32,661 bases of DNA. Origin: an uncultured Bacteroidales bacterium. Its GTDB lineage: Bacteria; Bacteroidota; Bacteroidia; Bacteroidales; UBA10428. Positions 3,490 through 29,262 of the stretch are shown in pieces; the first letter of the stretch is position 1; each line of letters opens with the position of its first letter. The notes under the pieces were generated by a model. The model saw nothing but the letters and a program-made list of their open reading frames with translations, had not been told where the DNA came from and ran no database searches. The stretch spans positions 1-32,661 of the forward strand of contig CAZBUF010000423.1 in NCBI GenBank assembly GCA_964495025.1. The letters run 5' to 3'. A program made the position numbers and the translations under genes.

Positions 3490-3517
3490 TTAATTATTTA
3501 ATGAAACATTTTTTTAA

Positions 3518-4899: not shown

Positions 4900-5604
4900 A
4901 TGGAAAAACTATTTGAACGAATTAGTAAAGATGTGAGGTATAAGGAAGGATTAAAATCCTGTATGAACTGTGGCGTGTGCACAGCAATATGCCCTGCAGC
5001 GGAGTTTTTTGACTACGATCCGAGGATGCTTATTACTATTGTACAAACGGAAGATGATGACAAAATAGAAGATTTGCTTAAAAGCGATATGATCTGGTAC
5101 TGCGGGCAGTGTATGTCATGCAAAACAAGGTGCCCGAGAGGTAATTGCCCCGGTTTGATAATTAATGTATTAAGAAAAGTGTCGCAGGAACTGGGATATT
5201 TTACATATAGTAAAATGGGGAGGCAGCAGTATGCAATTAAACGGACCGTAGGTGAGAATATTTTAAATTACGGGTATTGTGTATATCCTGATGCTGTGAC
5301 GCCGGAGATGCATCCTGAGCAGGGGCCTGTCTGGCAATGGGTGTTTAATAACAGGAAAGAAGTGTATGCAAGGCTTAAAGGAAATTATGATAAGGAAGGC
5401 CCTGGCACATTAAGAAAAATTTCCCCGGAAACTATGGATGAGCTACAATCAATATTTGATGTTACAGGAGGGACCAGTTTCTATGAACTTATTGATGAAT
5501 ACAGCAAAAACAAAGTAGAGGAAATGGGATTTGAAAGTGACGAAAAGAATATGAATAAATATTTTATGCATGTGTATAAAGACAGTATCGATGACGATTC
5601 ATAG
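4900..5604 (+). CDS. HdrC-like 4Fe-4S dicluster protein
   Basis: It has two ferredoxin-type motifs, CMNCGVCTAICP and CGQCMSCKTRCP. The spacing and following region are typical of heterodisulfide reductase subunit C. It lies directly upstream of an HdrB-like gene. Confidence 0.8.
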   Translation: MEKLFERISKDVRYKEGLKSCMNCGVCTAICPAAEFFDYDPRMLITIVQTEDDDKIEDLLKSDMIWYCGQCMSCKTRCPRGNCPGLIINVLRKVSQELGYFTYSKMGRQQYAIKRTVGENILNYGYCVYPDAVTPEMHPEQGPVWQWVFNNRKEVYARLKGNYDKEGPGTLRKISPETMDELQSIFDVTGGTSFYELIDEYSKNKVEEMGFESDEKNMNKYFMHVYKDSIDDDS

Positions 5605-5620
5605 TTAAAATTTTAAGTGT

Positions 5621-6685: not shown

Positions 6686-6700
6686 TTTGATATAAAACGG

Positions 6701-7732
6701 TTGAAAGTGATAAATATAGTAGCCATAGGAGGAGGAATTGCAGGTATTGAAGTTTCAAGTTTATTATCAGGACTGGGGTATGAAGTGACGCTTTTGGAAA
6801 AGAATTCTGAGCTTGGCGGCAAATTGCAGAATTATGATGCCCTTTTCCCAAACTTCAGGCCTGCATCTGATATTAAAGAATATATATTCAACAAGTGCAA
6901 GAATAACGGATTTGATATTCAGACAAATACTGAAATTATTGATATCGCCAGGAAAAACGGTAAGTTTTTGATACGTGCAAAAAATAATGAGACATTCAGG
7001 GCTGATGCGGTGGTCATAACAACAGGCTTTGATTTTTTCGATGCAAGGAAAAAAGAAGAATACGGATATAAAATATATGAAAATGTTTTAACATCTGTTG
7101 ACCTTGAAGAAAAATTCAAAAGAAAAGAGAAAATAAGAACGGCAAACGGAAAAATACCGGAACGCATAGCTTTTATACACTGTGTAGGTTCACGAGATGA
7201 AAAATCGGGGAATCATTACTGTTCCAAAGTATGCTGTATAACAGGAGTGAAACAGGCGATAGAGCTAAGTGAACAGTTGCCTGAAACGGAGATTTACTGT
7301 TTTTATATGGACCTTAGAATGTACGGACAGGGTTATGAAGAACTTTATCGTTCTGCACAGGAGAATTATAATATTCAATTTATACGGGGCAGGCTTTCAG
7401 AGGCATCCGAGAACATGGATGAAAGTCTTTTGATAAAGGCAGAGGATACACTTTCAGGCCGTCCGCTGAAGATGAATGTTGACCTGCTTATTCTGCTTGT
7501 TGGCATGGAACCTTCAGCAGGTACGTCCTGTTTGGGTAAAAGCTGTAAGCTGGAATTTGACAACAGCGGATTTATTAAAACAAAAGATCCTCATACCCAA
7601 AGAAATTATTCGACAGAGAAAGGGATATTTCTGGCAGGCACCTGCTCAAGCCCCATGTCTGTTAACGATACAATTGAGAATGCCAGATCAGCAGCTATGG
7701 AAATTCATAATTACTTTCAAGCAATTGATTAA
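6701..7732 (+). CDS. HdrA/QmoA-like FAD-dependent oxidoreductase (short form without ferredoxin domains)
   Basis: It has an N-terminal dinucleotide fold IVAIGGGIAGIEVSSLL...EVTLLEKNSELGGK. The HdrA-type cluster motif is HCVGSRDEKSGNHYCSKVCC. The start is TTG at 6701 (alternatively GTG at 6707), and no upstream ATG is in frame after the previous stop. Confidence 0.8.
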   Translation: MKVINIVAIGGGIAGIEVSSLLSGLGYEVTLLEKNSELGGKLQNYDALFPNFRPASDIKEYIFNKCKNNGFDIQTNTEIIDIARKNGKFLIRAKNNETFRADAVVITTGFDFFDARKKEEYGYKIYENVLTSVDLEEKFKRKEKIRTANGKIPERIAFIHCVGSRDEKSGNHYCSKVCCITGVKQAIELSEQLPETEIYCFYMDLRMYGQGYEELYRSAQENYNIQFIRGRLSEASENMDESLLIKAEDTLSGRPLKMNVDLLILLVGMEPSAGTSCLGKSCKLEFDNSGFIKTKDPHTQRNYSTEKGIFLAGTCSSPMSVNDTIENARSAAMEIHNYFQAID

Positions 7733-7733
7733 T

Positions 7734-8105
7734 ATGGAAAAATTCGGATTTGCCATACGGGAAACACGAACTATCGATTTTGAACAGTTTGACGAAAGAC
7801 TGCTTGAATATGTGCTTTCTTACGAACCGTCATTCCGTGTTTGTTTATCATGCGGGGGATGTACGGCAACCTGCAGTGCAGGCAACCTTATAGATTTTAA
7901 TATCAGGAAGATGAATCTTTTAATAAGACGTGGAGAAACAGAAGGACTGGAAAAAGAAATAAATAAATGTATGCTCTGTGGAAAATGTGTCCTTGTATGC
8001 CCGAGGGGAATAAATATTAGGAATGTTATAATGCTCATAAAAAAGGGTATAGTGTTATTTAATACGAGTGGAAAATCAGACCAAAGATATTATTGCCATG
8101 CATAA
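7734..8105 (+). CDS. Small 2x[4Fe-4S] ferredoxin-like protein (second HdrC-like module)
   Basis: The motifs are CLSCGGCTATCSAG and CMLCGKCVLVCPRG. I chose the ATG at 7734, 2 nt after the HdrA-like stop. The track ORF start at 7476 would overlap the preceding gene by 257 nt. Confidence 0.75.
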   Translation: MEKFGFAIRETRTIDFEQFDERLLEYVLSYEPSFRVCLSCGGCTATCSAGNLIDFNIRKMNLLIRRGETEGLEKEINKCMLCGKCVLVCPRGINIRNVIMLIKKGIVLFNTSGKSDQRYYCHA

Positions 8106-9930
8106 AGAACTTTTTACACTGCCATTTACTATTGGAGTGGCCTTTTTAATAGTCATTATTGTCGTCAGGTTTGCACAATGGGCAAGAGGGCTTTCAAAGA
8201 TTGATAAAATAAGGATATGGAAAAATGTTTTAACGGTAAAATCCTTGTTATCAATAAAAGAATCCTTTAGAGAAGGACTTTTACACCGTAATATATTTCG
8301 TAAAAACCCGTTGCTGGGATATATGCATATGAGTCTTGCTTTTGGCTGGTTCCTTTTGATAGTTGTCGGACATATCGAGACGGTATTATATAAACAATCG
8401 TTGTCATTTCCTTTTCATCTGCCCTTGTTTTTCAGATATTACGTTAGAGAAGAGACCGGCTTTTTTCTTTCCGGCGCTCTTACTTTCACTATGGACCTCA
8501 TTCTTTTATTTGTGTTGTCAGGAGTTGGACTGGCAGTATTCAAGAGATTCAGAAGCAAGCTCTTCGGGATGAAAAAAACTACAAAATTAAAGCTGAGCGA
8601 TAAAGTTGCATTAATTTCATTATGGTTTATCTTTCCATTGCGTTTCCTGGCTGAAGCCTTTACTTCCGGATTATACCATAACGGTAGTTTCCTGACACAG
8701 CCTGCAGGTAATTTCTTTAATTCGTTTCTTCCGCTGGACTCTCTGATGTTGCCGGTATGGTTTGCATATTCACTGTCACTTGGATTTTTCTTTGTGTCGT
8801 TGCCAACTTCAAGGTATATGCATATCCCTACGGAGATATTATTTATCTTTTTAAGGAACTATGGAATAAAGCTGAAAAAAAGGTGCAACGCCTTTTCTTT
8901 TGTGCAGGTTTATTCATGTTCACGCTGTGGAATGTGTCTTGACACCTGCCAGATGAACGGGGCAGGAATTAAAACTACCCAGTCGGTTTATGTACTCAAG
9001 AATATCAGGAACAGGAGCCTTACGGATGAGACTTTATTTAACTGTCTGTTGTGCGGAAGATGCCAGCAGGAATGCCCGGTAGGAGTGGAATTAAATGATA
9101 TGAGGATAACACAGAGAATTGAATCGACCCTTCAGTATAATTCATCCTATGATTATCTGCAGGAAGGGAAGGCAGAAAAAGCTGACGTGATTTATTTTGC
9201 AGGATGCATGACCCACTTAACGCCGGCCATAAAAAAATCAATGGTAGATATTTTTAAATATGCAGGTGTTAATTACTGGTTCATGGATGAGGAAAAAGCC
9301 CCTTGCTGTGGACGTCCGTTGATGCTGGCAGGGCAATTTGAGGCTGCGAAAAAATTAATATTGAATAACCAGAAATTAATTGAATCATCCGGGGCCAAAA
9401 TGCTTATAGTATCATGCCCGATATGCTATAAAGTATTTAAGGAAGATTATGGCCTTCATGATATCAAGGTGATGCACCATTCGGAATACCTGCTTGAATT
9501 GGTGAGAAATAATATCATACCTCCGGCTAAGCAGCCGCATGCAGTAATTTATCATGATCCCTGTGAGCTGGGAAGAGGATGTAACATTTATGACCAGCCG
9601 CGTGAACTACTTGAAAATTATGTAGATGTCCTTAAAATCAATGATGAAAAAGAATTAAGTTTCTGCTGTGGCGGAAGCCTGGCAAATCTTAAGATCCAGA
9701 TGGCTGAAAGGGACAAGATAAGAAACGGGGCGCTGGAAGAATATATGAGATATGGACCCGATTTCCTCGTTACTTCCTGTCCGTTATGTAAAAAGACCTT
9801 TTCAAAAGGTACAAAGATCCAGGTTTACGATATTGCTGAGATAGTATCAAAGAACCTGAAAACAAGCAGGCAGAGAGTTAAACATATAAAAGACCTGAAA
9901 AAGGAAATATATCAAACGGAGCTTATCTGA
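8098..9930 (+). CDS. Membrane-bound HdrE/NarI-like (DsrM-type) domain fused to an HdrD/DsrK-like Fe-S CCG protein
   Basis: The N-terminal ~260 aa hold about 5-6 TM helices with conserved His residues (GYMHMSLAFGWFLLIVVGHIE, SRYMHIPTE), as in b-haem NarI/HdrE/DsrM proteins. Two 4Fe-4S motifs follow (CSRCGMCLDTCQ, CLLCGRCQQECP). Two intact CCG domains then follow (FAGCMTH...PCCGRP...SCPICY; HDPCELG...FCCGGS...SCPLC). The ATG at 8098 overlaps the preceding stop by 8 nt. Confidence 0.85.
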   Translation: MHKELFTLPFTIGVAFLIVIIVVRFAQWARGLSKIDKIRIWKNVLTVKSLLSIKESFREGLLHRNIFRKNPLLGYMHMSLAFGWFLLIVVGHIETVLYKQSLSFPFHLPLFFRYYVREETGFFLSGALTFTMDLILLFVLSGVGLAVFKRFRSKLFGMKKTTKLKLSDKVALISLWFIFPLRFLAEAFTSGLYHNGSFLTQPAGNFFNSFLPLDSLMLPVWFAYSLSLGFFFVSLPTSRYMHIPTEILFIFLRNYGIKLKKRCNAFSFVQVYSCSRCGMCLDTCQMNGAGIKTTQSVYVLKNIRNRSLTDETLFNCLLCGRCQQECPVGVELNDMRITQRIESTLQYNSSYDYLQEGKAEKADVIYFAGCMTHLTPAIKKSMVDIFKYAGVNYWFMDEEKAPCCGRPLMLAGQFEAAKKLILNNQKLIESSGAKMLIVSCPICYKVFKEDYGLHDIKVMHHSEYLLELVRNNIIPPAKQPHAVIYHDPCELGRGCNIYDQPRELLENYVDVLKINDEKELSFCCGGSLANLKIQMAERDKIRNGALEEYMRYGPDFLVTSCPLCKKTFSKGTKIQVYDIAEIVSKNLKTSRQRVKHIKDLKKEIYQTELI

Positions 9931-10120
9931 GCAAGCCGTGAATTTTCTGTAATTCCGGGGAAATACGGTTTTCTCATAAGTCTTCGTTCCCGGTGAAGCG
10001 AAGGGACCTTTATGAAATCAAATATTTATTATCATGAGATAACTTCAGTCATTCTTCCTTCGTAATGACGTATTTATATCTTTTCCGACAGCCTCATTTA
10101 TATCCCCTGACGCAAGTATA

Positions 10121-10906
10121 TCAAAGTTCCCTGATTTTGATGTTTCTGTACCATACATCATCGCCATGATCCTGAAGTCCGATATATCCTTCTTCCGCAA
10201 CATTTGCCCAATCAGGATTAATGGTTACGAACTTGCTTTTTCCCACCATTTCATTCCAGTCACTTGTCCACAGGTGGTACTCAAGAATTTTTTTTCCGTT
10301 AAGCCAGTGTTCAACAAGGCCCTTTTCACAATATATCGCAGCTTTGTTCCATTCACCTACGGGTTTGACTATATCCCTTGAAACAGGAATAAGATCATAC
10401 AGTGCCCCGGCACAATGCGTTGTGTCAAGTCCATCCCTGTGATTGTCATTATCCAGTACCTGCATCTCGGGTGCTGTATGCCATATAGGTTTTCCTTCCA
10501 GCTCCTGTGCCAGGTAGAATATACCACTGTTACCTCCTTCAGATATTTTCCATTCAATCCTGAGTTCAAAATTTCTGAACTTTTTATCATATATTATATC
10601 TCCGCCTTTTCCTCCTGCTTCACCTTTTCCCGTACCTATGCACCGCAGTGCGCCGTCTTTAACAGTCCAGCCGCTATCCGGGAATGAACTTGCATTATAA
10701 CCTCTCCAGCCTTCAGAAGATTTTCCGTCAAACATGAGTATCCAGCCTTTGTTTTTTTCTGCCTGAGTAAGCATGTTTGTATCGGCAGTTTCTTTTTCGT
10801 CCCCTTCTGTACCGGCCGTGCTGTTACATTTACTGCCTTTAAAGGCATAAAATATTAATACGCTAAGTATTATACAAATAATAAAAATCAGGTTAGTTGT
10901 TTTCAT
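10121..10906 (-). CDS. Secreted DUF1080 (3-keto-disaccharide hydrolase-like, concanavalin-fold) protein
   Basis: It has a signal/anchor segment MKTTNLIFIICIILSVLIFYA. The DUF1080 hallmarks are GWRGYN...GWTVKDGAL, FELRIEWKISEGGNSGIFY, PEMQVLDN, GEWN...HWLNGKKILEY and GYIGLQDHGDDVWYRNIKI. Confidence 0.9.
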   Translation of the reverse strand: MKTTNLIFIICIILSVLIFYAFKGSKCNSTAGTEGDEKETADTNMLTQAEKNKGWILMFDGKSSEGWRGYNASSFPDSGWTVKDGALRCIGTGKGEAGGKGGDIIYDKKFRNFELRIEWKISEGGNSGIFYLAQELEGKPIWHTAPEMQVLDNDNHRDGLDTTHCAGALYDLIPVSRDIVKPVGEWNKAAIYCEKGLVEHWLNGKKILEYHLWTSDWNEMVGKSKFVTINPDWANVAEEGYIGLQDHGDDVWYRNIKIREL

Positions 10907-10943
10907 AGTTTCCGGTTTTAATATTATTCAGATAGTTGATAAA

Positions 10944-12422
10944 TTATAAATTCCAGCCTTGCCTGTATGTATGTTTAATATATTCCTCAGCTGCCTGTTT
11001 TGCATTTATGGTTGTCCTTTGCGTGTCGAAATGAGGATGACCTTCAATAACTGTAAATTTGTCAGAAGTCACAACCCTGATAGTATCAGCATCAGAGATA
11101 TTCGTAAATTTCATATTCTTCCCGTCCCACTTAAGTTCCCTGTTAAGGTCCTGAAGGCGGGCGGCAACAACACCCATAACCACCATCTCATTAAGCGGCC
11201 CCGCGTACCCGAAGTTTGAGCTTGTTTCCACCCTGTTTTCGGGAGTTTCTTTACACGCTCTCACCCAGTCCATCACATGTCCCAGTTCAACCCTTCGCAG
11301 GGTTTTTGGAGGTTCATTGAAGTGATCCATCTCAGAGTAAGGCAAAAGAATGGGTTTGCTTGACCAGCATCCGCACATAAGTGTTCTTTTACTGCCAACA
11401 AGTAAACATCCGCCGTTAATATCACGGCCCAGGATATCTCCTTCAGGCAGCCCGGCAGGCCTTGGAGGCAATAGCCCACCATCATACCAGGTAACTGTTA
11501 CTTCGGGCATGTTAACTTTTGCCATGTCTTTGCGTGCAGGGAATTTGTATTTTACTATTTCAGCTACCGGTGGACTCTCATTATTTATTTGTGTTGAACT
11601 CCCCTGCACACTTACAGGATATTGCAGGTTCAGGGTTTTAAATATGGGATCCAGAATATGGCAGGCCATATCACCTAAAGCACCGGTGCCAAAGTCCCAC
11701 CACCCCCTCCAGTTCCACGGAGTATAGGTCGGATGGTAAGGCCTGTAGGAGGCAGGGCCAAGGAACAGGTCCCAGTCAAGTGTGCCGGGCACCGGCGGAG
11801 TATCAGCCGGCCTTTCAAGGCCCTGTGGCCAGATAGGCCTGTTGGTCCATGCATGGGCTTCTCTTACCTCACCTATGGCACCGTCCCAAACCCATTCACA
11901 CATCTGGCGAAGTCCCTCGCCGGAATTACCCTGGTTCCCCATCTGAGTGGCAACCTTGTATTTCCTGGCAGTCTCTGTTAATAACCGGGATTCATAAACC
12001 GAGTGAGTTAAAGGTTTTTCACAATACACATGCTTACCCATCTTCATTGCTGTCATTGCAATAATAGCATGGGTATGGTCAGGAGTGGCAATAACCAGGG
12101 CATCAATATCGTTTGATTCTTCCAGCATCCTGCGAAAATCTTTATACTTCCTGGCTTGCGGATACTTGTCAAAAACCGCTGCAGCATATTTCCAGTCAAC
12201 ATCACATAATGCAACAATGTTTTGATCGGTTATCTGCCGTAAAACATCACCACCCTTACCTCCTATACCAACTGCTGCAACATTAAGTTTATCGCTTGGT
12301 GCTGTATGCCCTAAACCTCCAACAACATAACCTGGCAGAATAGTAAAAGCAGCTGTTGCTTTTGCCGCATTGCCTACAAACGCTCTGCGGGAAAGTTTCG
12401 AATTATTTGAAGATTTGCTCAT
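10944..12422 (-). CDS. Tat-exported Gfo/Idh/MocA family oxidoreductase
   Basis: It has a twin-arginine signal (SRRAFVGNAAKATAAF). The Rossmann motif is LNVAAVGIGGKGG. The conserved EKPL motif (VYCEKPLTH) and a long C-terminal alpha/beta domain are present. Confidence 0.9.
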   Translation of the reverse strand: MSKSSNNSKLSRRAFVGNAAKATAAFTILPGYVVGGLGHTAPSDKLNVAAVGIGGKGGDVLRQITDQNIVALCDVDWKYAAAVFDKYPQARKYKDFRRMLEESNDIDALVIATPDHTHAIIAMTAMKMGKHVYCEKPLTHSVYESRLLTETARKYKVATQMGNQGNSGEGLRQMCEWVWDGAIGEVREAHAWTNRPIWPQGLERPADTPPVPGTLDWDLFLGPASYRPYHPTYTPWNWRGWWDFGTGALGDMACHILDPIFKTLNLQYPVSVQGSSTQINNESPPVAEIVKYKFPARKDMAKVNMPEVTVTWYDGGLLPPRPAGLPEGDILGRDINGGCLLVGSKRTLMCGCWSSKPILLPYSEMDHFNEPPKTLRRVELGHVMDWVRACKETPENRVETSSNFGYAGPLNEMVVMGVVAARLQDLNRELKWDGKNMKFTNISDADTIRVVTSDKFTVIEGHPHFDTQRTTINAKQAAEEYIKHTYRQGWNL

Positions 12423-12447
12423 AGCTTGGTTTATTTAATGATTAATA

Positions 12448-14043
12448 TTAAATTATTTTTTGCCTGTCTTTATCCCAGTATACCTTCCTGCCTTCCCTGT
12501 AAGATATTGCACTCATATGGGCAGTGATTGCCTCTTCAAATCCCTTGTCTATGTTGCAGCTTGTTTTTGCATTTGTCCTTATGCAATCAATCCATTCTTT
12601 AATATGCAGAAATGTTGTATCTATTCTTTGTCCGTTCCGGTACGTATACAATAATCCCCTTTGTGCAAAATATTGTTCAGTAGGTGATACAATACCATCA
12701 ATATTATTTTTTCCGGGTATATAATTATAAATCGGAACACCGGGATCAATCTTTCCCTTTTCAATTTTTTCTTTGAACCTTGTGGAGTTTGGTTCGACTT
12801 TTACCTTCAGACCTCCGTTAATCTCCATACTGGCATCATGACCCATTATTAATGTCCCTCTGTGAACTTCATTTGAGAGGGTGGCACTGTATAAAAGCGT
12901 AAGGTCGCGTTCCGGGTATTCCAGCGTCGTCTGAATAACATCCGGGACCGTGCGGCCATCCTTAAAGTAATATATACCTCCTGATGAAACAGCGGAATGA
13001 GGGATACCTATTCCCATCAGCTGGTTTATCAGGTCGTACTCATGTGTCATCAGGTCACCTGATATTCCCAGGCCGTAATCCCACCAGCAACGCCACCTGA
13101 AAAATCTCTCAAGGCTGAACTTATGGTAAGGAGCCTGCCCTATAAATTGTTCCCAGTCAATATTCACGGGATCCGCATCAGGATGGATCGCGTAAACCCA
13201 GGCACCGTTAGGCGAATTTCTGTTTGTTGTCAGTTCTACCAGCGATATATTACCGAGAATATTCTCTTCGATGATTTTTTTTGCAGCACTGCAGAATTCA
13301 TTCTGAATACCCTGATGCCCAAGCTGAAAGGCAATATTATTTTCTTTTACCGTCCGTACAAGATCATATGTTTCATTAACTGCCCAGGTCATTGGTTTTT
13401 CGCAATAAACATGTTTGCCGTTTTTTGCTGCTTCTATAGCTATAGGTGCATGCCAGTGGTCAGGCGTGGCAATTATTACCGCATCAATTTCCGGTGATGA
13501 AACAAGGTCTTTGTAATTAAGAAATCTCTTTGGCTTTATTCCTGCCTTTCCTTCTGATCCTACCCTGTGAATATTGGCGCCGGCCAGTAATGCTTCTTCT
13601 GCATGGATATCAAAGATATCACAAATGCCACTGACAACTGCATTCAGATCTTCCTGGTTCATATAATCATCATATGAGGTATTGAAACGGTCATTTTTTG
13701 CAGCAGCTATATTATCATCAATCCATCGCGGTTCAGCGAAACCTGCTGCCCTGAGAAGATGCCGCCCCCTGATGCCAAAGCCTATGATGCCCAGCCGTAT
13801 CACCTTTTCCTTATTAACCTGTCTTAATAATGGCACCGGCGCGGGACCGAGGTTCAGCTCCTCCAGCAAGTTATTCCTGTATATACTCTCAAGTTTTCTC
13901 CTTCGATAGATACCATAAGCAAAAATGCCCAGAACCGGTATGGTAGCCAATCCTTTAAGCAGATCTCTCCTGCCAATCAATTTTGAATGCTTTTCAGCTT
14001 TTTTTTGCTTTTTCTTCTCTTTCTTTGATTTTATTCCTTTCAT
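12448..14043 (-). CDS. Tat-exported Gfo/Idh/MocA family oxidoreductase (paralogous class)
   Basis: The signal is RRDLLKGLATIPVLGIF, preceded by a Lys-rich n-region. The Rossmann motif is IRLGIIGFGIRG and the active-site region is VYCEKPMTW. I chose the ATG at 14041-14043. The track start (TTG at 14091) runs into the tandem repeat. Confidence 0.85.
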   Translation of the reverse strand: MKGIKSKKEKKKQKKAEKHSKLIGRRDLLKGLATIPVLGIFAYGIYRRRKLESIYRNNLLEELNLGPAPVPLLRQVNKEKVIRLGIIGFGIRGRHLLRAAGFAEPRWIDDNIAAAKNDRFNTSYDDYMNQEDLNAVVSGICDIFDIHAEEALLAGANIHRVGSEGKAGIKPKRFLNYKDLVSSPEIDAVIIATPDHWHAPIAIEAAKNGKHVYCEKPMTWAVNETYDLVRTVKENNIAFQLGHQGIQNEFCSAAKKIIEENILGNISLVELTTNRNSPNGAWVYAIHPDADPVNIDWEQFIGQAPYHKFSLERFFRWRCWWDYGLGISGDLMTHEYDLINQLMGIGIPHSAVSSGGIYYFKDGRTVPDVIQTTLEYPERDLTLLYSATLSNEVHRGTLIMGHDASMEINGGLKVKVEPNSTRFKEKIEKGKIDPGVPIYNYIPGKNNIDGIVSPTEQYFAQRGLLYTYRNGQRIDTTFLHIKEWIDCIRTNAKTSCNIDKGFEEAITAHMSAISYREGRKVYWDKDRQKII

Positions 14044-14078
14044 TTTATTTCGTTTATCATTGTCCAGAATAAACATAG

Positions 14079-14166
14079 AACAATAGAGCAATAGAACAAT
14101 TTAGCAATAGAACAATTTAACAATTTAACAATTTAGCAATTTAACAATTTAGCAATTTAACAATAT
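14079..14166. repeat. Tandem 8-bp repeat, about 11 units of A[AG]CAAT[AT][TG] (AACAATTT / AGCAATTT / AGCAATAG)
   Basis: Read directly from the sequence: aacaatag agcaatag aacaattt agcaatag aacaattt aacaattt aacaattt agcaattt aacaattt agcaattt aacaatat. It fills the gap between the DoxX stop (14166-14168) and about 35 nt upstream of the oxidoreductase ATG (14043). Confidence 0.9.
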
Positions 14167-14654
14167 TATCTGAGTCTTGAAATAATCCTGTCCAGCCCGA
14201 TAATTTTACCGGTTGGAAAAATAGTAAGGACAGCCAGTGCCAGGATTTCAATCAGTGTTTTATTTACTATCAGGTAATTCCCTTCCTGTGGAATAATATA
14301 ATTAAGCCCCAGAAAAGGAGGATGTGAAAGATAATAAAAGCTCAGAAGTATTATACCGCATATGCCTGAGAATTTAGTAAATATTCCCATAATCAGTCCA
14401 AGCCCAATCAATATCAAACCCCATATATTCAGAAAGTCAACAATATTCAGAATGTCCGCATTTGCGGCCATCGACTGGAAAATTCCCGGGAACAGGCCTT
14501 TGGAATCCATAAGGTATTCAAATGATGTCCAGCCCGGATTAAGAAATTTCACTATCCCTTCATACAGAAAATGCCACCCGATAAATACTCTGAGCGTTAC
14601 CAGTATAATCAGCTGGCTGGTACCTAAAAGTGGAACGGAGCTTCTACCTGTCAT
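14166..14654 (-). CDS. DoxX family membrane protein
   Basis: It is 162 aa with four hydrophobic helices. The N-terminal LRVFIGWHFLYEGIVKF pattern is typical of DoxX/MhqP-type proteins. Confidence 0.8.
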   Translation of the reverse strand: MTGRSSVPLLGTSQLIILVTLRVFIGWHFLYEGIVKFLNPGWTSFEYLMDSKGLFPGIFQSMAANADILNIVDFLNIWGLILIGLGLIMGIFTKFSGICGIILLSFYYLSHPPFLGLNYIIPQEGNYLIVNKTLIEILALAVLTIFPTGKIIGLDRIISRLR

Positions 14655-14770
14655 TTATTTAGTGTTAAAATTTCAAATACTAAAAATATACAATTATTAT
14701 AAACCATTCAAATACATATTTCAACCGTTCATTTTCAATGCCTGCAAATTCTTTGTTTAAGTTTTAAGGG

Positions 14771-14803
14771 ATTATGAATTTTATGCTTTATAATATTCAT
14801 AAT
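14771..14803 (+). promoter_or_regulatory. Perfect 9-bp inverted repeat ATTATGAAT-N15-ATTCATAAT upstream of the precursor peptide gene
   Basis: The arms are at 14771-14779 and 14795-14803, 25-57 nt upstream of the ATG at 14828, inside the divergent DoxX/peptide intergenic region. It could be an operator or a 5'-UTR hairpin. The AT-rich context makes a chance occurrence plausible. Confidence 0.3.
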
Positions 14804-14827
14804 GTTTAACTTAAAAAACTTAAAACT

Positions 14828-14878
14828 ATGGAAACAAAAAAATTGAGTCTCGAACAAATGGAAAACCTCGAAGGAGGT
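14828..14878 (+). other. Predicted leader region of the precursor (cleavage expected after Gly16-Gly17)
   Basis: The motif is L-S-L-E-Q-M-E-N-L-E-G-G, followed by a third Gly. Hydrophobic residues sit at -4, -7 and -12 relative to the cut site, as in known GG leaders. Confidence 0.65.
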
Positions 14879-15106
14879 GGATTAAGCCCGAAAGCTAAAT
14901 GCGGCATTGCATTAGGGCTTTATGTTGTTTCATTTGTAGCACTTGCTGCAGCAACAGGAGGAGTTGCAGTAGTATTAGCGCTGGCTGGTTTTGGAGGTTC
15001 TATATGGGGCGCTGCAGTGACATGCGACGGGGTCATTATTGGCTCACAACAAGTTGTGACACTGAATCCATCAAAACCAATTAATGGGCTACCTACTTAT
15101 AAATAA
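14828..15106 (+). CDS. Double-glycine-leader precursor peptide (class II bacteriocin-like), 92 aa
   Basis: The leader METKKLSLEQMENLEGG fits the LSxxELxxIxGG double-glycine consensus. The 75-aa core is Gly/Ala-rich and hydrophobic (CGIALGLYVVSFVALAAATGGVAVVLALAGFGGSIWGAAVTC), has exactly two Cys and ends in a polar tail. A C39-peptidase ABC exporter is encoded 3.8 kb downstream on the same strand. Confidence 0.8.
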   Translation: METKKLSLEQMENLEGGGLSPKAKCGIALGLYVVSFVALAAATGGVAVVLALAGFGGSIWGAAVTCDGVIIGSQQVVTLNPSKPINGLPTYK

Positions 15107-15217
15107 GGATCATTGATTTAAGAATTAAGATCTGTAAAATTTATTCAGGCTATCCGGAAAATATTTAAATTTTTTAAGGTGAAAATGGCAAAATAACGTT
15201 TATATTATTAATTGTAT

Positions 15218-16705
15218 ATGACCTGTAAAGAATTATATAAACACAATATCCTGGCAATAATCAGGGCTCCTTTTTTTGAAAAAAGCAAACCTGCAGGATA
15301 TTTCATGGTTGCCGGCACCATATTCATTATTTTCAATCTGCTGGTTTTCGGGCTTTTTCTGGATAGCTTTGTTAAACTCGTATATCCTGATAAAGATCCT
15401 GTTTATGTTCTTAACTCTGCATTAATATATGTATTTGTATTTGATTTATTCTTTCGTTCAGTGGTTCAGAGGTTGCCAAAAGTTGATTTTATACCCTATT
15501 TAATATTACCTGTTAAGAAAACCTTGATATCCCGGTTTTTAATATCCAAATCATTTCTCAGCTTTTTAAATCTGTACCTTTTATTAATTTTTGTTCCCTT
15601 TCTGGTAAAAACAGTTTTGTTAAATTATGATACAGTTTCTCTGATTACTTATTGTGCGGGTTTCATTCTTATGGTAGTAATTAACCAGTTGCTGATAAAT
15701 ATTTTACACTGTTTGATCCAGAATCGTTTCTATTTGATTTTTTTCCCATCGGTTTTCATTCTAATACTTTTTATCGTAATATTTTATTTTTCCTGGCCGG
15801 CAGGTGATAAAACAGCGGTTATCGGTACAGCTTTTCTGGAGGGCAATATATATGTATTTGCCATGCAAATATTAATTATTCTCTTTTTATATCTTTTGAA
15901 TATTACAGCATTTAAAATATTAATATCGGGTGAAACAGATTTTCGTAATATAATACGGGAGGGCAGAAAAAATAACAGGGGTCCGGGTTACCTTGCTGGC
16001 CGGGGGATAATCGGAGAGTATATGAAACTGGAGCTGAGCATGATACTCAGGAATAAACGGACAAGACAGAATACTTATTATTCAATATTTTTTGCTGTTT
16101 ATGCCCTGCTGTTCATGTTTTTTAATGAAATATCCCTTGATTCAATTTATGTTACACAAACTGTATTTTTAATTGTAACGGGGATATTTGCACTTTTTCA
16201 CGGCCAGTTTTTATTAAGCTGGGAAAGCTCATTTTCAGATTTTATTCATACCTATAATATTGCTTTAAGTGACTTTTTAAAAGCCAATTTTTACTTGTTT
16301 GTAATAAGCAATTTTTTAAGCGGTATTATTTTTCTTCCTGTAGTAATAATAATGAAAACAGATATATATCTGTATATCAGCATTCTGGTATTTAATGCAG
16401 GAGTTACTAATTTTCTGATTATATATAATTCCGTATTAAATTCAGGCAAGATTGATTTAACACGTAAAGCATACATGAACTGGCAGGGTACCAGCCTGAA
16501 TCAATTTTTATTAATAATAGCCATTGTTACGGTTCCATCTGGTATCTCTTTTATTATCAGGAAACTTTTACCCGGATTCAGTATTTATCCGGCATTGATC
16601 TTTGCAGGAGTCATAGTAGTTGTTTTTCATAATAAATGGATTGACCTGGCAACTATAAAACTCAGGAAAAGAAAATACTCAAATCTTGAGAATTACAGAA
16701 ATTAA
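15218..16705 (+). CDS. Polytopic (~12 TM) membrane protein, permease-like partner of the downstream ABC ATPase (possibly DUF5687-like)
   Basis: It is about 495 aa and almost entirely made of hydrophobic helices. One cytoplasmic-looking basic loop is present (RNIIREGRKNNRGPGYLAGRG). The ATG at 15218 is preferred over the track TTG at 15212. The DUF5687 assignment is from memory of Bacteroidota annotations and is unverified. Confidence 0.7.
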   Translation: MTCKELYKHNILAIIRAPFFEKSKPAGYFMVAGTIFIIFNLLVFGLFLDSFVKLVYPDKDPVYVLNSALIYVFVFDLFFRSVVQRLPKVDFIPYLILPVKKTLISRFLISKSFLSFLNLYLLLIFVPFLVKTVLLNYDTVSLITYCAGFILMVVINQLLINILHCLIQNRFYLIFFPSVFILILFIVIFYFSWPAGDKTAVIGTAFLEGNIYVFAMQILIILFLYLLNITAFKILISGETDFRNIIREGRKNNRGPGYLAGRGIIGEYMKLELSMILRNKRTRQNTYYSIFFAVYALLFMFFNEISLDSIYVTQTVFLIVTGIFALFHGQFLLSWESSFSDFIHTYNIALSDFLKANFYLFVISNFLSGIIFLPVVIIMKTDIYLYISILVFNAGVTNFLIIYNSVLNSGKIDLTRKAYMNWQGTSLNQFLLIIAIVTVPSGISFIIRKLLPGFSIYPALIFAGVIVVVFHNKWIDLATIKLRKRKYSNLENYRN

Positions 16706-16855: not shown

Positions 16856-17563
16856 ATGAAAATAATAATTGATAAGGTAATTAAAACTTATGGAAACAGA
16901 AATGTTGTTGATATTGATCTGCTGGAGATCAAATCAGGTGAGTTCCCGGGAATTGTCGGCAACAATGGGGCGGGTAAAACCACTCTTTTTCGTTTGATGC
17001 TGGATCTTGCAAAACCAAATCGCGGAGAAATAAAATCAGGAAATGTTATTGTATCAAAAAGTGAGGCATGGAAAAATTATACATCTGCATTCCTTGACGA
17101 TTATTTTTTAATAAATTTTTTAACGCCTGAAGAATATTTTCAATTCATTAGCAAATTATACGGATTAACAAATGATGAGATCTGCAGTAGGTTAAAAATA
17201 TATGACGGATTCATGAATAATGAGATACTTGATCAAAAAAAGTATATCAGGCAGTTTTCTTCGGGGAACAAACAAAAGATAGGAATAATAGGAGCATTAT
17301 TGGTTGAACCTCAGATATTAATCCTTGATGAGCCGTTCAATAATTTAGATCCTTCTTCTCAGAATATAATTAAGAAGATACTGAAGGATTTTAATAAGAA
17401 ACATAATTCAACAGTTATAATATCAAGTCATAATCTGAATCATATTGCAGATACCTGCTCAAGAATCATTCTGATGGAGAAAAGCAGAATAATCAAAGAT
17501 ATTAAGCAAAATAACGATAGCTTAAGAGAACTTGAAAGGTATTTTGCAATATCATACGATTAG
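16856..17563 (+). CDS. ABC transporter ATP-binding protein (stand-alone NBD)
   Basis: The motifs are Walker A GNNGAGKTT, a signature-like FSSGNKQK, Walker B ILILDEPFNNLD and an H-loop SSHNL. Confidence 0.93.
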   Translation: MKIIIDKVIKTYGNRNVVDIDLLEIKSGEFPGIVGNNGAGKTTLFRLMLDLAKPNRGEIKSGNVIVSKSEAWKNYTSAFLDDYFLINFLTPEEYFQFISKLYGLTNDEICSRLKIYDGFMNNEILDQKKYIRQFSSGNKQKIGIIGALLVEPQILILDEPFNNLDPSSQNIIKKILKDFNKKHNSTVIISSHNLNHIADTCSRIILMEKSRIIKDIKQNNDSLRELERYFAISYD

Positions 17564-17735: not shown

Positions 17736-18389
17736 ATGAAATATATTATTATTCTTTATAAAGCACTGGATAATGCCTCTTTATTTATTATTATATCTCT
17801 GGGCTTAATCCTGAACAATTACTTAATTAATGAATTTATTTATAGCAATGATATATTATATAAAGGGCTGGGAGATCAGTTAAGTGCTGATCACGTATCA
17901 ACGATAATTTATCTGTTAAAAAAGTGGAAATGGATCGGATACGTGTTTATACCAATAATACTGTTTGTAAAGCTTTATCTGATCTCATTCTGCATCGAGA
18001 TCGGCGCTATCTTTAAAGGGTATGAAATAAGCATAAAAAGAATTTTCAGAGTAGTGCTGTTCACTGAAATTGTGTATTTAACAGCACAGATTATGCGTAC
18101 TATAGCTTTGTATGTTTCAGATTATGAATCTATTAATGAAATTAGTCATTTCTATCCCCTGTCAATTATTGGTTTACTTAATTCTGAAAATTTAGCAGGC
18201 TGGTTATTATATCCTTTACAGATGATTAATTTGTTTGTCCTCATATACTTTTTTTTACTGGCTTATGGTCTTTCTGTGATGCTAAGAAAAAAATACATTA
18301 GGATGTTGTCCTTTGCAGTTGGCACATATGGGGCATGCCTGTTAATATGGGTGTTGCTGGTAATGTTTATTAGTGTTAGTATGTTATGA
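17736..18389 (+). CDS. Integral membrane protein of unknown function (about 5 TM)
   Basis: It is 217 aa with multiple hydrophobic helices. Its stop overlaps the start of the next gene in ATGA (18386-18389). I do not recognise a family. Confidence 0.7.
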   Translation: MKYIIILYKALDNASLFIIISLGLILNNYLINEFIYSNDILYKGLGDQLSADHVSTIIYLLKKWKWIGYVFIPIILFVKLYLISFCIEIGAIFKGYEISIKRIFRVVLFTEIVYLTAQIMRTIALYVSDYESINEISHFYPLSIIGLLNSENLAGWLLYPLQMINLFVLIYFFLLAYGLSVMLRKKYIRMLSFAVGTYGACLLIWVLLVMFISVSML

Positions 18390-18919
18390 TTATTCATTAC
18401 AGGAAATATTATAAGTCTGTTGTCCTTACACTGCTCATTTCCATACTGCTATATCTGCCATACAGGATATTCTCGGTTATTAAAATCAAAAGCAGTATCA
18501 TGAAGGAAATAGAAATATTACCGGATTTTGAGTTTACTACTTTACAGGGAACACGCTTTGGAGTGGATAACATTATTAAGGGCAGTCCGGTTGTGATATT
18601 TTTTTTTAATTCCGAATGTTATTATTGCATAAATGAAGTAGAGAGTATCATCGGGAACATTAATTCTCTTAAGAACACTAATATCCTGCTGGTTTCAGAA
18701 CAGCCATTAAATAAGCTGGCTGAATTATATGATGAATATAAATTATATAAATATCCGCAGGTGAAATTATTACACAGCAGTTATCGGAATTTCATCTCGA
18801 TATTCGGAAATACTGTTGTGCCCTCAACCTATATTTATAATGAAAGAATCAGCCTGTTAAAGCTATTCAAAGGTGAAGCAGGTATTGAGTCAATTTTAAA
18901 AGTTATTAATAACCCATAA
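18386..18919 (+). CDS. Membrane-anchored thioredoxin-fold (TlpA/AhpC-TSA-like) protein with CxxC motif CYYC
   Basis: It has an N-terminal TM anchor SVVLTLLISILLYLPY. A thioredoxin-like stretch LPDFEFTTLQG...GSPVVIFFFNSECYYCINE follows, with CxxC at nt 18617-18628. A cis-Pro-type region TVVPSTYIYN lies downstream. Confidence 0.75.
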   Translation: MIIHYRKYYKSVVLTLLISILLYLPYRIFSVIKIKSSIMKEIEILPDFEFTTLQGTRFGVDNIIKGSPVVIFFFNSECYYCINEVESIIGNINSLKNTNILLVSEQPLNKLAELYDEYKLYKYPQVKLLHSSYRNFISIFGNTVVPSTYIYNERISLLKLFKGEAGIESILKVINNP

Positions 18920-18930
18920 ACATCTGCCAG

Positions 18931-19335
18931 GTGGATTTAAAGGCAATTAAGAGATCATTTGTCAGGCAACATGACCAGTCAGATTGTGGTATTGCATGTA
19001 TGCTTAGTATTATCAACTATTACGGAGGTGAAGAAAAGCCGGAAAAACTCAGAGAACTTAGTGGAACAGCAAAAACGGGGACAAAATTGCTTGGCCTGTA
19101 CCAGGCATCCAGCCAAATCGGGCTTGTCGCTGAAGGACTGGAAACTAACATAGAATATCTGAAAAGAATAAAGGATCCTGTTATTTTACACATTACAACT
19201 GAAAACAACCTTCAGCATTTTATTGTATGCTACGGTTGCAGGGAAGATAAATTTATTATTGTCAACCCGGCAAAAGGTGTTGAGGAATATACAAGTGAGA
19301 AAATAAAAACAGTATGGAAATCCGGGGCATTGTTA
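18931..19335 (+). other. C39 cysteine-peptidase domain of the exporter
   Basis: Gln15, Cys19 and the HF...D/N-P region all appear intact, so the domain looks catalytically competent rather than a degenerate C39-like domain. Confidence 0.75.
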
Positions 19336-21099
19336 ACAGTAAGGCCAGGGAATGATTTTGTTAATAAAAAGCAGGCAAGGATAAAAAAGATAAAATGGGT
19401 CAAAGAGTTAATAAAAGAGGATATTACAATTCTGTCAGTATCATTGATCCTTGGTATAGTAATATCAATCCTGGGAATAATAATGGCAGTTTTTTCACAG
19501 ATACTCGTGGATGATATTCTGCCGGGTGAAAAAAAAGAAAAACTTATTGCAGGGTTAATAATTGTTGCATTCCTTTTGCTAATAAGAGGAGCATTGTCTT
19601 TTATTCATAATCTTTTTGGCATAAAGCAAAGCAGGGATTTTAATTTACGTATTATAGATTTTTTCTATTCAAACCTGTTAAGATTACCAAAAGCTTTTTT
19701 TGATAACCGCAAGACAGGAGACATGGTAGCAAGGCTTAATGATACATCAGTTATTCAGCAGACAATAGCCTATATCATTAATTCCCTGTTAATAAATATT
19801 TTGATCCTGATCATGTCAGGGGTTGTTATTTTTCTTTATTCCTTTACTGCCGGACTGATTGCTTTTTCCAGCCTGCCCGTGTATTTTTTAATTTCATATA
19901 TTTTTCATGACAGGATAGTGAAGGTCCAGCGTGAGGTCATGGAGGCACATGCGGGAAATGAAAGCAACTATATTAACAGTATACAGGGAATTGAGATCAT
20001 AAAGAACACAAATAATGAAAAGCTTTTTTCTGACTTAAATAAACTGGTATACGGGCTATTCCAGAATACTATATTTAAGCTGGGTAAAATAAACATCAGC
20101 CTGGGTGTTGTTGTCGATCTGACGGGTGTGATATTTGTTATGGCATTACTCACTGTGAACTCATTTATGGTCATTGGTAATTCAATTACTATTGGATCGC
20201 TGATAGCTATATCAGGTATATCATCGTTAATATTTCCTGCAATAGCTGCAATAGCCTTTGCAAATATTCATCTGCAGGGAGCAAGGATAGCTTTTGACCG
20301 TATGTTTGAATTTGCAGGGTTAAAAAAAGAGTATGAACTTCGAAAAGAGAATAATAAAATTAGCCAGGATAATATATCAACACTCTCCTTTCGGAACATA
20401 TCATTTCGCTTTCCCGGAAGGAAGGAATTATTCAGGGATATTTCATTTACAGTTAACAAGGGGGAAATGATTACTCTTTTTGGCCAGAGCGGTTGCGGAA
20501 AAACCACAATTCTGAATATTATCCAGAAATTCTATTATCATGATAGAGGCAGGTACCAGGTTAATAATATTGACTCAGATAAAATTTCTATCCCGGCGCT
20601 GAGAAAAAACATTGCTATTGTCCCGCAGGAAACGAAGTTCTTTAACGGAACAATAACAGATAATATTTGTCTTGAAAATACTAAAAGTGATCTTCAGGAG
20701 ATTATAATGTTTTGTAAAAAATATGGATTTGATAAATATTTTGAACAGTTCCCCATGGGATATATGACACTCCTTGGTGAGGACGGGATTAACATCTCAG
20801 GGGGGCAGCAGCAACTTGTGTCCTTTGCCCGTGCTCTTTACCGAAATCCCCTTGTGCTGCTGCTTGATGAACCTTCATCAAGCATGGACAGGGAAACGGA
20901 AAACTTTATTATTAATCTGATGAAAAAGTTAAAGAAAAATATAATAATAATACTTGTTACACATAAAATAAGCACAGCAAGGGAATCTGACAGGATATAT
21001 ATTATCGATGAAGGTGAGATTAAGCAGACAGGGAGCCATAAAGAACTTATATCTTATGAGAACATTTATAGTATGGCATATAATGACATTTCATTTTGA
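18931..21099 (+). CDS. Peptidase C39 domain-containing ABC transporter (bacteriocin/peptide processing exporter)
   Basis: The N-terminal sequence QHDQSDCGIACMLSIINYYGG provides the oxyanion Gln and catalytic Cys. The later sequence QHFIVCYG...IIVNPAKG provides the catalytic His/Asp region. Six TM helices follow. The NBD has Walker A GQSGCGKTT, signature ISGGQQQ, Walker B LLLDEPSSSMD and H-loop VTHK. The start is GTG; any downstream ATG would delete the catalytic Cys. Confidence 0.93.
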   Translation: MDLKAIKRSFVRQHDQSDCGIACMLSIINYYGGEEKPEKLRELSGTAKTGTKLLGLYQASSQIGLVAEGLETNIEYLKRIKDPVILHITTENNLQHFIVCYGCREDKFIIVNPAKGVEEYTSEKIKTVWKSGALLTVRPGNDFVNKKQARIKKIKWVKELIKEDITILSVSLILGIVISILGIIMAVFSQILVDDILPGEKKEKLIAGLIIVAFLLLIRGALSFIHNLFGIKQSRDFNLRIIDFFYSNLLRLPKAFFDNRKTGDMVARLNDTSVIQQTIAYIINSLLINILILIMSGVVIFLYSFTAGLIAFSSLPVYFLISYIFHDRIVKVQREVMEAHAGNESNYINSIQGIEIIKNTNNEKLFSDLNKLVYGLFQNTIFKLGKINISLGVVVDLTGVIFVMALLTVNSFMVIGNSITIGSLIAISGISSLIFPAIAAIAFANIHLQGARIAFDRMFEFAGLKKEYELRKENNKISQDNISTLSFRNISFRFPGRKELFRDISFTVNKGEMITLFGQSGCGKTTILNIIQKFYYHDRGRYQVNNIDSDKISIPALRKNIAIVPQETKFFNGTITDNICLENTKSDLQEIIMFCKKYGFDKYFEQFPMGYMTLLGEDGINISGGQQQLVSFARALYRNPLVLLLDEPSSSMDRETENFIINLMKKLKKNIIIILVTHKISTARESDRIYIIDEGEIKQTGSHKELISYENIYSMAYNDISF

Positions 21100-21972: not shown

Positions 21973-23115
21973 TTAATTTAATAACTCTGAAAGTTTCCTG
22001 TTTAGTGCATTTGAATTTATATTCTTTGCTATGATAGTCTCCATATCTTTATCAATAAGATAATTACAGGGAATTGTATTAACGTTATATCTGGTCACAA
22101 CCCTGGAATCAGGATATGTGGAATCGTTAACACATAACCATGGCAACTCATCAAAATTAATTGCCCTTTTCCAGTGAGCAATGGATTTATCAAATGAAAC
22201 CTGATAGATCTCAAACCCTTTATGTTTATATCTGTCATAAACATCTTTAAGTTTAATATTTGCATTGACACTTTCAACATTCCAGGACGCCCAGAAACTC
22301 AGCAATACGTACTTCCCTTTTAATGACAACAGGTTAATGGTATCACCCCTGATATCAGGCAATGCAATTTCGGGCAATGCATAATCCTCTTGTTTGACAT
22401 AGCTAAGTATCTTTTGTGTATGATAATCCTGAATTAACTTGCTGGTGTATTTGTTAAGCACTGAAACATGGTTCGATCTCGGGTAGCGTTTTCTCAGTGA
22501 ATCCCTGACAATCTTATAAAACTGGATATCGCGTGTCTTGTTAAATAAATATGACTGTGGCTGTATTTCCTGGTATAATGCCCTGATGCTTGCCAGAGAT
22601 GAATAATTATTTAAAATAAAGTTAATTGAATACCTGCGGTGATCCTCAATAACTTTTTCATATTTTGCCGACAGGTCTTTTCTTGCCGTTTCATCTGATG
22701 AACTATTATAGTTGGTGGCCAGGGAATCGAGCTTAGACTTTGTTATTCTTAATTTATGCGACAGTTCATTGATCAACTGCGAACCTGTTGACCCTTTAAT
22801 TAAAAGTGTCTCACCTAAATTGCTTAAGTCTCCTGATATAACAGCACTTTCACCGGGCTCAAGCAAGAGGCTGATTATTTCATTATCTGATCTGAGTTGA
22901 TAGAATTGAGGGATTTTTGTTTGTGCAGAGAATGAAAAACGGCCCTTGTTTTTTAATCTTAATGAGTCAATTAATTTCACCCTGTAAACATCAACCTCTT
23001 CAAAATACATAGTTTGTCCCTTAGAATTCAGGAGCGTGCCCTTAATTTTGACTTTTTTAATATTACTGCACGAAACGAAAGCAAAAAGCCCGAAAATAAA
23101 AATTACAGTTCTCAT
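21973..23115 (-). CDS. TlpA/AhpC-TSA-like lipoprotein with N-terminal DUF4369-like domain; CxxC replaced by NVES
   Basis: The lipoprotein signal is MRTVIFIFGLFAFVSC (start taken at 23115, the second Met of the track ORF). The thioredoxin-fold block is GKYVLLSFWASWNVESVNAN...GFEIYQVSFD...IPCNYLID. The canonical WCxxC position reads WNVES (nt ~22270-22284). Confidence 0.8.
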   Translation of the reverse strand: MRTVIFIFGLFAFVSCSNIKKVKIKGTLLNSKGQTMYFEEVDVYRVKLIDSLRLKNKGRFSFSAQTKIPQFYQLRSDNEIISLLLEPGESAVISGDLSNLGETLLIKGSTGSQLINELSHKLRITKSKLDSLATNYNSSSDETARKDLSAKYEKVIEDHRRYSINFILNNYSSLASIRALYQEIQPQSYLFNKTRDIQFYKIVRDSLRKRYPRSNHVSVLNKYTSKLIQDYHTQKILSYVKQEDYALPEIALPDIRGDTINLLSLKGKYVLLSFWASWNVESVNANIKLKDVYDRYKHKGFEIYQVSFDKSIAHWKRAINFDELPWLCVNDSTYPDSRVVTRYNVNTIPCNYLIDKDMETIIAKNINSNALNRKLSELLN

Positions 23116-23116
23116 A

Positions 23117-29207: not shown

Positions 29208-29262
29208 TATTCATTTAGCCCTGAAAATAATACTGTGAAATAAAATTAATTCATTAATTGAG

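Follow-up and report, generated by a model that had tools for sequence, protein, structure and literature searches.

A cysteine-bracketed, predicted helical-hairpin peptide encoded with a bacteroidetocin-type cassette in uncultured Bacteroidales

Few peptide toxins are known from the Bacteroidota, all of them recent discoveries, and tests have covered just four bacteroidetocins. [quoted passage not shown] 2019, PMC6671954), the proteins of the Bd-A/B cluster being EH213_01842–01845 (PMC6671954). The peptides have been proposed as class IIf (Coyne et al. 2019, PMC6671954; Matano et al. 2021, PMC8546649), and an extended set was defined by a GG leader, at least two cysteine residues and the ancillary genes (Coyne et al. 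2019, PMC6671954). Bacteroides are without general Dsb/disulfide machinery, and native bacteroidetocins migrate differently once reduced (PMC6671954).

We analysed a 32,661-nt stretch of DNA from an uncultured Bacteroidales bacterium (contig CAZBUF010000423.1 of assembly GCA_964495025.1; hereafter the window), in which the gene for a double-glycine peptide is followed by five further genes on the same strand (Table 1). The ancillary genes of the bacteroidetocin cluster have their counterparts here in the genes for a 4–5-TM protein, a CxxC protein of thioredoxin fold and a PCAT. The peptide shows the two cysteine residues and the GG leader of the extended set, but its leader is 17 aa and its core 75 aa long. 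That the whole arrangement matches a published bacteroidetocin-type cassette was missed by an earlier sequence-only reading of this DNA, and the match lowers the novelty of the locus.

Table 1 Features of the peptide gene cluster, given as positions in the window
Feature	Position	Strand	Description	Basis
Precursor gene	14828–15106	+	92-aa product; stop codon included	ORF list, orthologues, substitution pattern
Double-glycine leader METKKLSLEQMENLEGG	14828–14878	+	Residues 1–17; predicted cut after G17	
Short cationic N-terminal core segment GLSPKAK	14879–14899	+	Residues 18–24	
Cys25-to-Cys66 module	14900–15025	+	Arm 1, 26–43; turn, T43-G44-G45; arm 2, 46–65	
Polar, Pro-containing C-terminal tail	15026–15103	+	Residues 67–92, 26 aa	
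DUF5687 polytopic membrane protein	15212–16705	+	~12 hydrophobic segments	PF18940, 282 bits; hydropathy
ABC ATPase	16856–17563	+	DrrA/lantibiotic-protection type	PF00005, 76 bits
Unannotated 217-aa membrane protein (TM217)	17736–18389	+	4–5 hydrophobic segments	Hydropathy
Membrane-anchored thioredoxin-fold protein	18386–18919	+	C78-Y-Y-C81	PF00578 (AhpC-TSA)
PCAT	18931–21099	+	C39 peptidase, ABC membrane domain and ATPase	Pfam

The segment 14879–15103 corresponds to codons 18–92 of the precursor ORF, so that the 92-aa product is made up of a 17-aa double-glycine leader and a 75-aa core, as had been stated for the core before (residues 18–92), in the layout METKKLSLEQMENLEGG / GLSPKAK / C25 / GIALGLYVVSFVALAAAT / G44-G45 / VAVVLALAGFGGSIWGAAVT / C66 / DGVIIGSQQVVTLNPSKPINGLPTYK. 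M1 is the first ATG past an in-frame stop codon at 14807–14809. Orthologues were 68–75% identical to the precursor in BLASTP local alignments. Comparison with two of them (loci L001 and L007) gave 24–26 synonymous and 16–17 non-synonymous codon changes, with 29–36 changes at the third and 6–7 at the second codon position. This synonymous excess and third-position bias show that the ORF is a real gene under purifying selection. The protein-database entry for the peptide (P0001) has 82 aa and starts at M11 (MENLEGG...; 14858, not 14828), an automatic gene call that deletes most of the leader. The homologues start with M[KE]TKKL, supporting the M1 start and the 92-aa form. Leaders of PCAT substrates are ~15–30 aa long, end in GG and have hydrophobic residues at −4, −7 and −12, and all of this was found in METKKLSLEQMENLEGG, in which L6 (−12), M11 (−7), L14 (−4) and G16-G17 (−2/−1) can be read off directly. 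The leader was kept across the relatives with G17 nearly invariant in the family alignment, and cleavage after G17 is predicted.

C25 and C66 (codons 14900–14902 and 15023–15025) are the sole cysteine residues in the precursor, and none of the 40 residues between them is charged. G44-G45 (codons 14957–14962) separates arms of 18 and 20 residues, which agrees exactly with the sequence-only reading of two cysteines at the ends of a ~40-residue hydrophobic stretch that a GG splits into two helix-length segments. Gly, Ala and Ser account for 20 of the 42 residues from C25 through C66, and the core is extremely hydrophobic, with a net charge of about +3. Both segments had also been called rich in small-xxx-small motifs. 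As a count this holds, with nine such pairs between the cysteines, but not beyond composition, since composition-preserving shuffles gave 8.8 (P=0.57); GxxxG was observed twice against 1.3 expected in shuffles (P=0.39). An enrichment of small-xxx-small or GxxxG motifs was thus rejected, the counts being equal to what composition gives.

Searching 1.84 billion representative proteins with a profile (E≤0.001) yielded 29 relatives only, and the same kind of search in a 5.8-billion-protein set added just three further members. When the peptide and nine relatives were scanned against Pfam and NCBIfam (E≤10), no match exceeded its cut-off; they form a sequence family without a Pfam or NCBIfam model. 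In the alignment of 31 relatives, the mean column identity was 15%, T43 and G44 were at least 90% conserved and G45 was Gly in 27. C25 and C66 were the only invariant core columns at this low identity, so their bracketing of the core is far beyond chance, and the alignment supports a functional role for both residues. A third, unpaired cysteine occurs in some relatives and counts against our preferred explanation below. We also compared 43 GG-leader peptides, namely the profile relatives together with peptides read from the loci examined. The first cysteine lay 1–12 residues past the cleavage site and the last one near the C-terminus, with a median Cys–Cys span of 42 residues (range 24–51) that contained 0–1 charges, bar two peptides with 2 and 4. 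Arm lengths across the family were 18 or 21 residues for arm 1 (Cys to T43) and 21–25 for arm 2, the two being weakly correlated only.

Two AlphaFold2 models were computed, one of the precursor from 31 sequences and one of the isolated core from 30. Each contained a helix at residues 21–43, a break at G44-G45 and a second helix at residues 46–70 (precursor) or 46–68 (core), with a pLDDT of 74–85 in the hairpin, in support of the helix–GG–helix organization proposed earlier. The pTM was only 0.36–0.41, which counts against our preferred explanation below. Foldseek returned 0 matches in the PDB and nothing meaningful in BFVD, and a profile search of PDB sequences likewise returned 0 matches. C25 is located 19 residues ahead of G44, and C66 21 residues past G45. 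The residue numbers of the two cysteines add up to 91, against 89 for the turn, which would place both approximately level in an antiparallel hairpin. In this reading, the two helices would pack antiparallel.

Conservation patterns were examined for a helical register. Across the family, helix 2 positions 47, 51, 54, 58, 61 and 65 were at least 84% Gly/Ala/Ser, which with their 4-3-4-3-4 spacing fall in a stripe along one face of the helix (P ~0.03 for periodicity), and the large residues of helix 2 were periodic as well (P 0.01–0.02). Helix 1 showed no single small-residue face even at the family level (P=0.25), a point against our preferred explanation below, and small-residue helical periodicity in the window sequence alone was not significant. 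Conserved small residues were mirrored about the turn (42/47, 38/51, 35/54 and 28/61; r=0.46, permutation P=0.03), in a register that is not unique, as registers 82, 91 and 96 score alike; as evidence for an antiparallel register the mirroring is suggestive and no more. Overall, the reading as a hairpin clamped by its cysteine pair is well supported but indirect, resting on the alignment, the models and the accompanying genes described below. The sequence-only reading was largely right on the hairpin and on the role of the cysteine pair, and its zipper was overstated.

The tail was predicted as coil from residue 69–71 on (pLDDT ~50). Q74, L79 and P81 were conserved only within a close subfamily, and a tail of at least 15 aa was present in 12 of the 43 related peptides and missing in 31. 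Being disordered, poorly conserved outside the close subfamily and mostly absent, the tail is not part of the fold. Its earlier description as polar and Pro-containing was correct in composition but not in length, because the 20-aa string given comprises residues 73–92 of a 26-aa tail; the view that it has no obvious role accords with its predicted disorder and with its absence from most relatives. It is speculation that the tail might be a dispensable addition that serves solubility or the choice of receptor.

The Cys–hairpin–Cys module was also present at the extreme C-terminus of longer proteins (loci L016/L017), namely P0014 (256 aa), P0017 (118 aa), P0022 (188 aa) and P0027 (280 aa). P0014, P0017 and P0027 terminate exactly at the second cysteine, and P0022 stops short of it. 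A lipoprotein-like N-terminus without a GG leader was seen in P0014 and P0027, the latter encoded without a nearby PCAT, between a gene of HTH_3 type and one for an unannotated product of 194 aa. Possibly the module is a membrane-hairpin unit that can be moved between proteins. In locus L010 (3837–5803), three Cys-bracketed peptide genes in tandem encode nearly identical leaders and divergent cores.

Among the downstream genes, the ABC ATPase gene was always found after the DUF5687 gene in the loci examined, and the DUF5687 protein is presumed to be the permease partner of the ATPase. The best NCBIfam matches of the ATPase were DrrA, TIGR03740 and GldA, all under their curated cut-offs. A literature search found no paper on DUF5687. 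Distant DUF5687/ABC pairs occur in unrelated contexts, which counts against our preferred explanation below. TM217 had no Pfam or NCBIfam match; its homologues (30–36% identity) adjoin thioredoxin-fold and PCAT genes in Flavobacterium, Tenacibaculum and Bacteroidales loci. TM217 was considered as a DsbB/VKOR-like re-oxidant and rejected, because its homologues share no conserved cysteine.

The thioredoxin-fold protein has one N-terminal hydrophobic segment as its anchor, and its CxxC motif was invariant across seven homologues/loci with a varying intervening dipeptide. The nearest solved relative was the thioredoxin-family protein 2l5o, and matches to the NCBIfam ResA and TlpA models were sub-threshold. 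Positive charges flank the anchor on both sides, so a cytoplasmic, reducing role is possible for this protein. The PCAT scored 105 bits for C39, 108 bits for ABC_membrane and 105 bits for ABC_tran, matched PCAT1 (4ry2) over its full length (E=9e-113) and carries the catalytic Cys and His motifs of C39 (QxxxxDCG..C and HF), thereby providing the cognate C39-bearing exporter expected for a double-glycine substrate. The window ORFs of at least 80 aa that were scanned, a set without any ORF running off the 3′ end past 29208, contained no HlyD/MFP or OEP/TolC domain. The lack of a local MFP or TolC gene, which bears on passage across the outer membrane, counts against our preferred explanation below; TolC may be encoded elsewhere on the chromosome. 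Neither the window nor the conserved cluster was found to encode a modifying enzyme, be it radical-SAM, LanB/C/M, YcaO or another type.

All six genes were complete and identically ordered in L001–L003 and L006, which are uncultured Bacteroidales MAGs. L004, L005 and L007 are shorter contigs with the first three or four cluster genes only, L007 having the first four in the same order before the contig ends. Identities of the cluster proteins were 52–82% (52–77% for L001–L003). The trio of TM protein, thioredoxin-fold protein and PCAT is far wider spread in the Bacteroidota than the six-gene cluster, and tblastn placed it next to differing hydrophobic Cys...Cys peptides with a GG leader in L008 (Flavobacterium segetis), L010 and L012 (Tenacibaculum). 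In L010, another Bacteroidales MAG, the three tandem peptide genes lie beside the trio, and gene maps and translations gave the same gene order for L014 and L018. In L025, an unrelated metagenomic contig, DUF5687 and ABC genes stand directly upstream of two Cys-bracketed GG peptides. The DUF5687 gene of this contig is split into two half-size ORFs before the ABC ATPase, and past the Cys-bracketed peptides lie a GG-leader peptide of another type (MKKLKKNEILKIKGG...) and then a fragment resembling LanC (these features together at 5102–7219 and 8004–12359).

Upstream of the peptide gene, the sequence ACC[A/G]TTCA occurs twice, exactly 21 bp apart, at 14703–14731 (+), ~100–125 bp before the start codon. 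It is the only same-strand pair in the window, which has three matches overall, and the arrangement was identical in L007 and had one mismatch in L001. In layout, these 21-bp direct repeats recall the sites that LytTR-type regulators have in class II bacteriocin promoters. L014 and L018 carry LytTR genes close to related peptides, and none was seen within the window. A conserved TTTG (14752–14755) and then GAATTTTA (14776–14783) follow the repeat pair and resemble the −33/−7 promoter elements of Bacteroidota.

The flanks of the cluster contain genes of other kinds. A five-gene operon at 4900–9930 (+), encoding Fer4, CCG-domain and pyridine-nucleotide-disulfide-oxidoreductase proteins, resembles heterodisulfide reductase (hdr) and is syntenic in L001–L003; genes for a HisKA_3 kinase and a GerE-type response regulator lie upstream of it (2542–4165). 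Between this operon and the peptide cluster is a four-gene block on the opposite strand (10121–14654, −) for a 3-keto-disaccharide hydrolase, two GFO/IDH/MocA oxidoreductases, one with a twin-arginine-like N-terminus (RRDLLKG), and a DoxX/MauE membrane protein. The block is missing in L001–L003; in L007, the DoxX gene and its oxidoreductase neighbour, at a minimum, occupy the corresponding place. The G+C content reaches 0.50 at 11001–12000 against ~0.35 elsewhere, which suggests that the block is an insertion. The divergent DoxX/MauE gene (14166–14654) was considered as a member of the system and rejected, as it is absent in L001, where the cluster comes directly after the hdr-like operon. Just downstream of the cluster, two tandem paralogous genes at 21973–23133 and 23117–24256 (−) encode DUF4369 plus thioredoxin-like (TlpA/ResA-type) proteins, and we found no evidence tying them to the peptide cluster. 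No complete ORF of at least 140 aa was listed for 29208–32661; the G/C skew stays positive here, so that a long ORF on the + strand probably continues past the end of the window.

In our preferred explanation, to which we give a probability of roughly 0.6, the ORF product is a precursor from which an unmodified bacteriocin-like peptide is secreted, one of bacteroidetocin type (class II, microcin-like) whose helix-TGG-helix core is closed by its two cysteines. Once the 92-aa precursor is made from this selectively maintained gene, the PCAT, whose gene lies 3.8 kb downstream, would use its C39 domain to recognize the 17-aa leader, cut after G17 and export the 75-aa core, as the leader motif and gene adjacency suggest. 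C25 and C66 may then be oxidized outside the cytoplasm by the membrane-anchored CxxC protein of the cluster, and the resulting C25–C66 disulfide would close the open end of the hairpin, each arm of which is of bilayer-spanning length; the invariance of the cysteines, the co-conservation of the CxxC motif and the predicted secondary structure all point in this direction. By analogy only, the closed hairpin might enter a target membrane with its cationic N-terminus and tail remaining outside, and there disturb the membrane or dock on a membrane protein, or it might be toxic in another way. The characterized bacteroidetocins target BamA rather than the lipid bilayer (BamA for Bd-A; PMC8546649), which counts against membrane action. 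The ~5-TM protein could be an accessory factor, like the TM protein needed for bacteroidetocin production, and the DUF5687 and ABC-ATPase proteins would form an ABC exporter that shields the producer from its very hydrophobic product or aids release.

It seems unlikely to us that the peptide is exported with cysteines that form no intramolecular staple, being instead reduced, joined in intermolecular dimers or bonded to a partner, with the thioredoxin-fold protein serving as reductase or isomerase. TlpA/ResA-type proteins are classically reductants. The sub-threshold ResA/TlpA-type matches of the thioredoxin-fold protein and its ambiguous topology would fit such a role, and so would the odd number of cysteines in several relatives. 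Both cysteines are, however, invariant and equidistant from an almost invariant turn, and the predicted antiparallel architecture sets them level. The bacteroidetocins speak on both sides, since synthetic, non-oxidized forms are active whereas the native peptides shift on reduction (PMC6671954). A further possibility is that the peptide is a RiPP with heavy modification, for instance of the lanthipeptide or sactipeptide kind, and that its cysteines are used for thioether links. A GG leader with conserved cysteines would suit such a precursor, and a LanC-like fragment does lie near related peptides in L025, but the window and the conserved cluster lack the modifying enzymes listed above and the sole redox enzyme present is the CxxC protein of thioredoxin fold, making this origin very improbable.

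We also doubt, to a considerable degree, that the peptide is no toxin at all but a small membrane-resident or signalling peptide in the producer envelope, for example one that anchors as a hairpin or that serves the DUF5687–ABC pair as substrate or partner. Its leader, the PCAT, the tandem loci (three genes in L010) and the fast diversification of the cores are hallmarks of bacteriocin loci, and experiments have established the matching four-gene cassette as a toxin system (PMC6671954). These points have to be set against the occurrence of the same module at the end of 118–280-aa proteins, including the lipoprotein-like P0014 and P0027, the latter without a nearby PCAT, an arrangement that looks like a membrane anchor with both ends periplasmic; the extreme hydrophobicity of the core would suit an anchor as well.

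The peptide could belong to a wider group. It is possible, albeit doubtful, that there is an unrecognized phylum-wide class in the Bacteroidota of PCAT-exported helix-TGG-helix hairpins of TM length, with a disulfide installed by a CxxC protein, modular in tails, tandem arrays and lipoprotein-like carrier fusions, and paired with the DUF5687 ABC proteins in at least two lineages. DUF5687 would then gain its first role, in bacteriocin self-protection or release; the locus offers in any case a first testable role for this domain. The model makes the simple prediction of one disulfide, with function lost in C25S/C66S or CxxC mutants. Such peptides, if active, would be possible narrow-spectrum tools against Bacteroidales. 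Nothing is overturned by these results, which are for specialists an expected extension of class II and bacteroidetocin biology.

Several described groups of peptides share features with the window peptide. In pediocin-like class IIa bacteriocins a second disulfide, such as C24–C44 of pediocin PA-1, stabilizes a C-terminal hairpin-like domain. This disulfide ties the end of the membrane-inserting domain back on itself, much as the one proposed for the window peptide would; the window peptide differs in having no YGNGV box and no N-terminal β-sheet domain, in coming from another phylum and in that the whole core, rather than a C-terminal domain, would be the hairpin. Lactobin A/cerein 7B (TIGR03949) and the Bacteriocin_IIc peptides (PF10439) have a GG leader, a Gly-rich hydrophobic core and two cysteines in common with the window peptide, but are from Firmicutes. 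These two were the only curated models with any signal for the window peptide or its relatives. The window peptide scored 12.7 bits against PF10439 (E=0.13), under the gathering threshold of 27.1 bits, and had no match to TIGR03949 at E≤10; the relatives P0019 and P0015 scored 15.4 and 14.9 bits against TIGR03949, under the cut-off of 21.5 and with a signal mostly from the leader.

The disulfide of MccV is a small C-terminal loop, unlike the end-to-end clamp proposed for the window peptide. The class IIa microcins (MccV/colicin V, MccL and MccN; PMC12219008) are otherwise comparable in their Gram-negative producers, in a GG leader cut by a PCAT and in a Gly/Ala-rich, hydrophobic mature peptide of 75–90 aa; they have one or two disulfides and act at the inner membrane. 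They show no sequence match to the window peptide, are exported via PCAT, MFP and TolC whereas the scanned ORFs of the window include no MFP or TolC gene, and rely on a small dedicated immunity protein instead of an ABC pair.

The bacteroidetocins come closest in gene content. As in the window system, these are Cys-containing, unmodified peptides of Bacteroidota with a double-glycine leader, encoded next to genes for a ~5-TM protein, a thiol oxidoreductase and an ABC exporter with a C39 peptidase, and local genes for an MFP or TolC are absent from both. The mature bacteroidetocins are 42–48 aa long with leaders of 15–16 aa, compared with 75 aa and 17 aa for the window peptide. Bd-A and Bd-B have a core of 42 aa, four cysteines and only 12–13 hydrophobic residues, whereas two cysteines bracket 40 uncharged residues here, and the fully hydrophobic, Cys-bracketed predicted hairpin of this family is clearly unlike Bd-A/B in architecture. 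In addition, the DUF5687/ABC-ATPase pair sits between the peptide gene and the cassette in the window. Bd-A/B producers are without an immunity function. Thus the window system is an unannotated variant of bacteroidetocin-type systems, not a system of a new kind, and is set apart from Bd-A and Bd-B by the features above.
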